Virus record (IMG/VR): IMGVR_UViG_2698536355_000001
DNA from: a virus
Lineage: Monodnaviria > Loebvirae > Hofneiviricota > Faserviricetes > Tubulavirales > Inoviridae
DNA: 5,101 bases
Direction: 5' to 3' (one strand)
Shown here piece by piece: positions 3,185 to 4,428 of this stretch (position 1 is the stretch's first letter; every line of letters starts with the position of its first letter). The position numbers and the translations under genes are program-made. Under the pieces are notes generated by a model. The model had not been told where the DNA came from. It made no database searches and saw only the letters and a program-made list of their open reading frames with translations.

Positions 3185-4428
3185 ATGAAAAGGAAAATAT
3201 TAATTATTTCCGCTATTCTTATTTCTTCTTTTTCACATGCTGATTCATGGGAAAGCATTACTAAATCTACTTTTCAAAGCTCTGCCTATTCTGAAAGTAA
3301 GCAAATAACCAACCAAGATGGCACTAAACAAACTGTTTATTATATTGATGCAGCTATGCAGGCTTCTGCCTGTCAGGGGGCTAAAGACAGTGCTCAGGGT
3401 GTTTTTACTCAGGTTAAACCAACTTATGAGGGAGTATGGCCTAACTCTGAATTCCGTCTTGTGTTTTCTGACGCTTGTACCTACAGCGACTCTCCGGGCC
3501 AGAAAGATAAATACTGGAATTTAACCGCTTATATTATCGGTGATATTCAGCGTTCTATTCCTGATGAAAAACCCTCCGAGCCTACACCTGAAGAAATTTG
3601 TGAAGCTAAACCTCCTGAAGAAGGTGTATTTAATAATGTCTATCTTATGATGGTGATCGTTATATTTATTATAACGGTTGTGAATATGAGGCCACTGGCG
3701 TCATTGTTTGCCAGGGTGATGGCACTGTTTGTGCGGCGACATGGAAGCCTACCGGAACCGTAGCCGATCCTTCAGATAAGCCTTCTTCTCCTGCTGGCGA
3801 TGGTGGGGATACTGGAGGCGGGGATACGGGGGGTGGTGATACTGGAGGAGGTGATACAGGCGGTGGTAACTCAGGTGGCGGTAACTCAGGTGGTAATGGC
3901 TCAAGTATTACCAAAGGAGATATTCAGTCAGCTATTGAAGGTGCTTCACCTAAAATGGCCAGTGAGATTCATGATAAGTTAACAGAAAAAGACACCTCAT
4001 CTGATGATAAAAAATCGGCTGATGAACAGACTAAAAATAATATAAATCGTCTTGGTGACGCTATAAATAACCTTACTCGCGGAGCCGGACGTTTTGCTGA
4101 TCCTTCTGGCGGTGATTCTCGTTATGGGAAAGGGGATTCCGAATTAGACAGTGCTTCAACATTGGCTGAATCCGAATTAGGAATAGCTAAAGATTCTCAT
4201 GGTGCTTTATGGGAAGCATTCCTGAATAAAGGTGCTATGCTCCCTAGTTTACCTAATGGTAATGGTTGTTCTGAACTTGTTATTTTCCCCGGTGAAATTT
4301 ATCAGATTGATATTGAATGCGATAAATTACTTACTATCAAAGATGCGCTTTCATGGATTTTTTATTGCCTTACCTTCTGGTATGTATTTACGTCTTTAAC
4401 CTCATTACTTCGTAAAGGAGGTGAGTAA
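3185..4428 (+). pseudogene. gIII: Adsorption/minor coat protein pIII (g3p), interrupted by an apparent 1-nt frameshift near 3644..3648
   Basis: ATG at 3185 with signal peptide MKRKILIISAILISSFSHA. Frame 2 reads through ...[18 protein letters not shown] and then becomes hydrophobic nonsense ending at 3763. Frame 1 opens at 3637 and reads [37 protein letters not shown], matching recalled M13 N1 (DRYANYEGCLWNATGVVVCTGDETQCYGTWVPIG), then the Gly-rich linker and a C-terminal domain ending ...IDIECDKLL...[17 protein letters not shown] (M13: IDCDKINL...FMYVFSTFANILRNKES). One extra T in the run at 3645..3646 would restore a single ~414 aa frame. Confidence 0.85.
3796..3900 (+). repeat. In-frame tandem repeats encoding the Gly-rich linker of pIII
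   Basis: About four 15-nt units encoding GGGDT followed by two encoding GGGNS, read directly from frame 1. The minus-strand 'PPVSPPPVS' ORF at 3669..3914 is the antisense of this repeat. Confidence 0.8.

Follow-up and report, generated by a model that had tools for sequence, protein, structure and literature searches.

The gene III region of the window (the whole stretch of 5,101 nt that was analysed) is very probably an IKe-type gene III, belonging to a prophage of the dif/hipBA region of E. coli and inactivated by the deletion of one T within the sequence encoding the N1 domain. In the form found here, gene III (3185-4428) is a frameshifted pseudogene, and a functional g3p cannot be made from the gene as it stands. 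The deletion allele is present in a widely sampled E. coli lineage.

General organization of the window and of the gene III region

The gene order on the + strand of the window is that of an Ff/IKe-like filamentous phage. The following features were distinguished:

1301-2353, + strand: gene II-like ORF (by the ORF order of an Ff/IKe-like filamentous phage)
2365-2682, + strand: gene V-like ORF
between the gene V-like and gene VIII-like ORFs, + strand: two ORFs of about 30 aa each
2896-3138, + strand: gene VIII-like ORF
3185-4428, + strand: gene III region, 1244 nt
3185-3241, + strand: g3p signal peptide MKRKILIISAILISSFSHA, 19 aa (from the translation; cleavage before D20)
3242-3559, + strand: IKe-type pilus-binding domain, aa 20-125, PF21443, intact in the window
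3560-3595, + strand: interdomain linker PDEKPSEPTPEE, Pro/Glu-rich, 12 aa (aa 126-137; from the translation and a drop in pLDDT)
3596-3643, + strand: first 16 residues of N1 (TolA-binding-type), still read in the start-codon frame (matched by 4eo1_A and Ff N1)
3642-3644, + strand: site of the one-base deletion (TATTCT -> TATCT), frame shift -1 (global alignment with the NZ_CP144928 locus, L001:9095-10339)
3643-3768, + strand: remainder of N1, -1 frame, untranslated from the start of the gene
3644-3763, + strand: out-of-frame tail (39 residues) and the premature stop (3761-3763) that ends the 192-aa product
3769-3903, + strand: Ser/Pro segment and Gly-rich repeat linker (GGDTG and GGGNS units), -1 frame
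3904-4428, + strand: g3p C-terminal domain (3904-4425) and stop codon, -1 frame
4348-4410, + strand: membrane anchor within the g3p C-terminal domain
3955-4428, + strand: residual 157-aa ORF called by gene finders 3' of the frameshift, with no signal peptide
4428-4769, + strand: gene VI-like ORF
from 4770, + strand: gene I (zot-like) ORF, start only

IKe gene III has an annotated signal peptide of 19 aa, and the g3p signal peptide found here aligns with it. The 157-aa downstream ORF is found on 67 public contigs, where it is labelled 'Uncharacterised protein'.

Between gene VIII and gene III lies a GC-rich hairpin (AGGGGCA-CUCGU-UGCCCCU followed by UUUAUU; 3148-3166); in IKe, a stem-loop annotated as a potential terminator occupies this position. 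The region holding it (3136-3184) has a minimum free energy of -12.6 kcal/mol (z -1.95); a consensus terminator scan made no call for this hairpin, and a scan of 2850-4500 for promoters and terminators gave hits at chance level only. Upstream (5') of gene II, two ORFs are encoded on the minus strand (162-584 and 683-1129), both conserved in related prophages. One of them encodes a 148-aa helix-turn-helix protein that is probably the prophage repressor, and the other encodes a 140-aa protein with several hydrophobic stretches.

A single-nucleotide deletion splits gene III

The sequence-only reading had presented 3185-4428 as one gene. Its parts and their order (signal peptide, N-terminal domain, N1, Gly-rich linker and anchor) were all located, and this portion of the proposal stands; the single gene does not, since the interval of 1244 nt is not a multiple of 3 and therefore cannot be a single ORF, and a stop codon interrupts it at 3761-3763. 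The frame opened by the ATG at 3185 reads MKRKIL...EEGVFNNVY, continues as LMMVIVIF... and ends at this stop after 192 aa. The -1 frame, which encodes what remains of N1 together with the Gly-rich linker and the C-terminal anchor, is open from 3637 (following a TAA at 3634-3636) and ends at 4426-4428. The continuous protein that had been quoted for the gene is thus not encoded: the ellipsis between 'EGVFNNV' and 'DRYIYY' hides the frameshift, the second part being in the -1 frame. The one continuous ORF for all domains that characterizes the IKe/I2-2 type is absent from the window.

A megablast search of complete E. coli genomes aligned window positions 91-5004 with a prophage of NZ_CP144928 at 99.9% identity. 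This relative contains an intact gene of 1245 nt encoding an 'attachment protein' (414 aa; WP_053902684.1). In a global alignment with it the sole difference across gene III is one T of a TT doublet, absent at window 3642-3644; when this T is restored, the gene III translation aligns gap-free at the site to all relatives. Every other family member, including the 99.9%-identical relative, encodes a single ORF, and the split of gene III is therefore a derived state and not a conserved feature.

The deletion is genuine and not an error of one sequence, because the exact 192-aa truncated product (108 blocks indexed in public assemblies) was seen on 82 public contigs (NCBI, ENA and Logan). The exact intact 414-aa parent is on 38 public contigs. 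The same deletion was found in five fetched loci (L007-L011) from four assemblies (NCBI and Logan), all of them 99.92-99.96% identical to the window and gap-free against it up to position 5004, with three of the five spanning it from position 1. No exact match to the deletion allele was found in contigs representing one genome per species, a set that holds very few E. coli genomes and is uninformative in this respect. Both tandem prophage copies in GCA_977064715.1 (L007 and L008) have the gene III deletion. These copies share not only an identical gene III deletion but also an identical upstream IS1 insertion, so the tandem duplication or re-integration came after both mutations.

In the 192-aa product, the signal peptide and the complete pilus-binding domain are followed by 16 residues of N1, in which one cysteine is left unpaired, and then by a hydrophobic tail of 39 residues; this product lacks the remaining part of N1, the linker and the anchor. 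Translation of the downstream domains is possible only from the internal ATG at 3955 and would give a protein that has no signal peptide. Ff genetics is the basis for expecting a particle defect when g3p is lacking, and by this analogy the prophage copy in the window should yield no infectious or properly terminated virions without help. The out-of-frame tail (3644-3760) is strongly hydrophobic and could hold an exported pilus-binding domain in the membrane.

Other disrupted forms of the gene were also encountered. The truncated g3p products P0003, P0004/P0005 and P0008/P0010 (one to three sequences each) show frame changes at about aa 128, 105 and 76, respectively; they may be independent pseudogenes or assembly errors. 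In E. coli A20 (NZ_CP028755, L012:3541-6913) a gene III of the same type has been disrupted independently: an IS21-like element, ISEc62, splits the attachment gene after about 240 nt, and genes VI and I are also shortened there. A 508-aa E. coli protein (P0077) combines secretin domains (PF03958 and PF00263) with PF21443; it is apparently gene IV fused to the start of gene III in the tandem copy that follows, or else an artefact of gene calling. The idea that gene III copies labelled 'hypothetical protein' are broken was abandoned, as the two copies checked in complete genomes are intact 426-aa genes; on this account, disruption of gene III is not common among complete genomes.

The N-terminal domain belongs to the IKe pilus-binding family

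In the 192-aa product of the window, residues 22-125 match the Pfam model PF21443 ('G3P, pilus binding domain'; E 1.9e-25; profile positions 2-105 of 105), and the same residues of the intact relative match it with E 8e-25. Among PDB sequences, residues 20-128 match 4eo0_A (E 1e-27), whose entry is titled 'crystal structure of the pilus binding domain of the filamentous phage IKe'. Window residues 20-137 were modelled with AlphaFold2 from a 38-sequence alignment, with a mean pLDDT of 92.6 and a pTM of 0.78. In a Foldseek search of the PDB, 4EO0 was the sole significant match of the model (E 8.8e-14; TM 0.86/0.95; rmsd 1.2 Å; 106 columns; 47% identity), and the runner-up had E 0.17. No match to Ff N2 (1g3p or 2g3p) was obtained in the sequence search of the PDB, nor a significant one in the Foldseek fold search. 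A search of NCBIfam gave no hit. By profile, sequence and predicted structure, the N-terminal domain is assigned to the IKe pilus-binding family, with a modelled fold unrelated to that of Ff N2; this fold and two conserved cysteines are retained in the window.

It had been proposed from the sequence that an unrecognised N-terminal domain of about 125 aa, possibly a new variant, precedes N1 and is the likely determinant of receptor specificity. Such a domain is present, but it is smaller than proposed (106 aa folded, 118 aa with the linker) and it is neither unrecognised nor a new variant, since it falls within the known PF21443 family with the 4EO0 fold. Both profile and structure-based searches related it clearly to the IKe g3p pilus-binding domain and gave no significant match to Ff N2. 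The suggested role in receptor specificity was supported: this is the fastest-diverging domain of the protein, and binding to a pilus is predicted for it by homology.

Identity to the intact protein for the N-terminal domain, N1 and the C-terminal domain is 49/74/51% in IKe and 47/76/51% in I2-2, and in the family alignment the N-terminal domain falls to 18-50% where N1 keeps 50-86%. From these comparisons, the N-terminal domain is the fastest-evolving, and apparently a mosaic, module of the g3p family. Its fast divergence fits a role in receptor recognition, and the most plausible assignment is that of a receptor-specificity module. In two relatives (P0037 and P0058) N1 is 86% identical to that of the intact protein and the pilus-binding domain only 29-35%. 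These identities suggest that the N-terminal module has been exchanged between phages. The functional labels of the two IKe domains are taken from PDB and Pfam titles and from general background; the 4EO0 and 4EO1 structures were reportedly described by Jakob et al. in 2012.

N1, the C-terminal domain and relationship to known phages

The N1 coding sequence is present in the window, split between two frames. Residues 135-176 of the intact relative match PF05357 (Phage_Coat_A; E 8.4e-8); the N1 fragment of the window alone gives E 0.14. Among PDB sequences, residues 130-195 match 4eo1_A (E 1e-25) and residues 137-223 match N1 of fd/M13 g3p (1g3p, 2g3p, 1tol, 1fgp and 8b3o) with E 1e-12 to 1e-13, in agreement with the proposed homology of this segment to Ff N1. 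Four cysteines of N1 (C139, C166, C176 and C183) are invariant across six aligned sequences. At the C-terminus, 200 residues can be aligned with positions 208-403 of f1 g3p (8b3o), and the C-terminal domain also aligns to the C-termini of IKe and I2-2 g3p. The number of Gly-rich repeats varies among the relatives, and variable Gly-rich repeats have been reported for gene III of the UPφ phages (PMC7307601).

The domain order is that of IKe and I2-2: a domain of the PF21443/4EO0 fold follows the signal peptide, N1 comes after this pilus-binding domain, and a Gly-rich linker and the C-terminal anchor complete the protein. The sequences of 4eo0_A and 4eo1_A are IKe g3p residues 20-128 and 130-197, and they map here, in this succession, to residues 20-128 and 130-195; IKe g3p is collinear with the protein, at 56% identity over residues 1-205. 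These alignments bear out the IKe-like order suggested by the sequence-only reading and show that IKe g3p is not N1-first, as Ff g3p is. A literature search returned nothing direct on the domain order of IKe g3p. The arrangement of the Ff type, in which N1 occupies the mature N-terminus and N2 follows, is not seen here, as Ff N1 (chain residues 5-86) aligns to aa 137-223 and not to the N-terminus.

A full-length alignment with the g3p of IKe, I2-2, PEar1 and two E. coli prophages was collinear throughout (55-92% identity). IKe g3p (NP_040576, Lineavirus IKe) has the same order of parts from the signal peptide through to the C-terminal anchor, and shares the linker PDE(K/E)PSE.TPEE and the four-cysteine N1. 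It differs in that the Gly-rich linker is shorter here and the gene of the window is frameshifted; moreover, gene III studied here sits in a dif-region prophage, whereas IKe is a non-integrating phage. The g3p of I2-2 (NP_039621) and of the Erwinia phages PEar1-6 show the same architecture at 55-56% overall identity (with I2-2/PEar gene III matching at about 70% in DNA) and the same differences (the shorter Gly-rich linker here, the dif-region prophage and the frameshift in the window). The interdomain linker is conserved in IKe, I2-2 and PEar. The Ff phages (M13, fd and f1; 1G3P, 2G3P, 1TOL and 8B3O) have a homologous N1 and C-terminal domain, and also a Gly-rich linker and an anchor, but in their g3p N1 comes first and is followed by the F-pilus-binding N2, while here the pilus-binding domain is placed first and has a different fold.

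A homologue search with the full-length protein gave 67 clusters, nearly all with both PF21443 and PF05357 and all from Enterobacterales (Salmonella, Escherichia, Izhakiella, Yersinia enterocolitica, Citrobacter, Providencia, Proteus, Pantoea, Pectobacterium and Arsenophonus); the same search with the domain alone yielded mostly truncated proteins. An exhaustive HMMER search of 1.84 billion representatives with the N-terminal domain alone found only 14 proteins, so the family of this domain is narrow.

Prophage context and insertion of IS1

The prophage adjoins hipBA in NZ_CP144928, NZ_CP126934 and NC_017632, often as tandem copies. In this it resembles the UPφ phages, which are IKe/I2-2-related prophages integrated at dif next to hipBA, often in tandem (Shapiro and Putonti, 2020; PMC7307601): IKe/I2-2-like core genes are found in a prophage, with tandem copies, and placement in the dif region is derived from the adjacency to hipBA. 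Gene III was described as the most variable gene of UPφ, with one case of a premature stop in gene III, for which complementation was raised (PMC7307601). No new infections were obtained by the authors and IncI pili were only suspected as the receptor, all UPφ901-carrying isolates also having an IncI plasmid (PMC7307601). The described UPφ genomes share about 98% protein identity with one another and are marked by the accessory genes h1 and h2 (PMC7307601), which lie outside the window. Compared with the UPφ copy of E. coli UM146, the window is about 84% identical in DNA and its repaired g3p 85% identical in protein; the UM146 copy has the GGGES repeats named in that description (PMC7307601), and the window has GGDTG and GGGNS units instead. 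On these identities, the phage of the window would be a diverged UPφ relative, outside the described near-identical set. An identity with CUS-1 or Ypfφ was rejected, as the genes that these have in common with the IKe-like UPφ phages are limited to II and V (PMC7307601).

Both ends of the window are derived from IS1, an element of 768 bp: its last 90 bp occupy positions 1-90 and its first 104 bp positions 4998-5101. The two ends correspond to L007:4817-4906 and L007:4139-4242, with the InsA and InsB ORFs in between. Because of IS1, the window had 74,151 megablast places. The zot-like gene I that begins at 4770 keeps its first 76 codons before the downstream IS1 copy interrupts it; elsewhere, carriers of the gene III deletion have an intact gene I of 364 aa. 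The prophage copy in the window is therefore doubly disabled, by the frameshift in gene III and by the interruption of gene I by IS1.

Alternative explanations

That only one base differs, and that the nearest complete genome has an intact gene, could be taken to mean that the frameshift is a sequencing or assembly error in what is really an intact 414-aa ORF. This is highly improbable, given that the exact 192-aa product recurs across NCBI, ENA and Logan assemblies (82 contigs), that five loci from four assemblies carry the same deletion, gap-free against the window, and that the site is a TT doublet and not a homopolymer run. There is an equally small chance that the -1 shift is programmed, through ribosomal or transcriptional slippage, and yields a short secreted form together with full-length g3p. 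The shift needed is indeed -1 and the N1 frame is open from 3637, but no in-phase slippery heptamer (X XXY YYZ) was found in 3625-3765 and no run of at least four identical bases in 3600-3700, and the other family members, even the 99.9%-identical one, have a single ORF. It is improbable, if somewhat less so, that the frameshift allele has been kept because it is useful, with the exported 192-aa product, its pilus-binding domain complete and its out-of-frame tail hydrophobic, serving in the periplasm or envelope as a decoy against superinfection by related phages or one that disturbs conjugative pili. Fragments of Ff g3p have such blocking effects. Loss of the virion-anchoring half would then be a domestication step of the prophage.

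Two further alternatives concern the N-terminal domain. It does not resemble Ff N2 (no 1g3p/2g3p N2 match) and could not be matched in the sequence-only reading, yet the view that it is a new receptor-binding domain unrelated to known g3p domains is refuted, to the point of near certainty, by the full-profile PF21443 match (E 2e-25), the match to 4EO0 (E 1e-27) and the 1.2 Å superposition. A more serious alternative, unlikely as it is, is that the intact domain binds a non-conjugative structure, such as a chromosomal pilus or an outer-membrane component, and that the phage lineage is plasmid-independent. Its identity to the IKe and I2-2 domains is only 47-49%, the prophages are widespread in E. 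coli, Salmonella, Klebsiella, Citrobacter and Yersinia, the UPφ phages have no established host requirement, and no receptor has been found for the unrelated dif-phage Ypfφ either. Against this, the 4EO0 fold and the two conserved cysteines are retained, IKe and I2-2, the sole members with a known receptor, use conjugative pili, and an IncI plasmid was present in all UPφ901-carrying isolates (PMC7307601).

Proposed function of the intact protein and implications

In the preferred reading, that of an IKe-type gene III inactivated by a one-T deletion, the intact 414-aa g3p would be exported via its Sec signal peptide, anchored by the C-terminal helix and incorporated at the terminating end of the virion, which it would cap. 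Attachment to the tip of a retractile pilus, probably a conjugative one, would be the task of the N-terminal domain; N1 would then bind TolA, and the C-terminal domain would drive entry. The steps of pilus binding, TolA binding and entry are modelled on IKe and Ff g3p.

Much of this framework is already known: both N-terminal domain families have solved structures and Pfam models, the intact protein is in RefSeq under the name 'attachment protein', and the prophage group is known from earlier work. The finding is an ordinary one, adding a further, inactivated member to a known family, in a prophage of a type already described. Gene III should be annotated as a pseudogene with a frameshift at 3642-3644, and not as a 414-aa protein, and the double disabling of this copy matters to anyone scoring the prophage as active. 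For host-range work on plasmid-dependent phages, the intact relative, and not the copy in the window, is a reasonable starting point.
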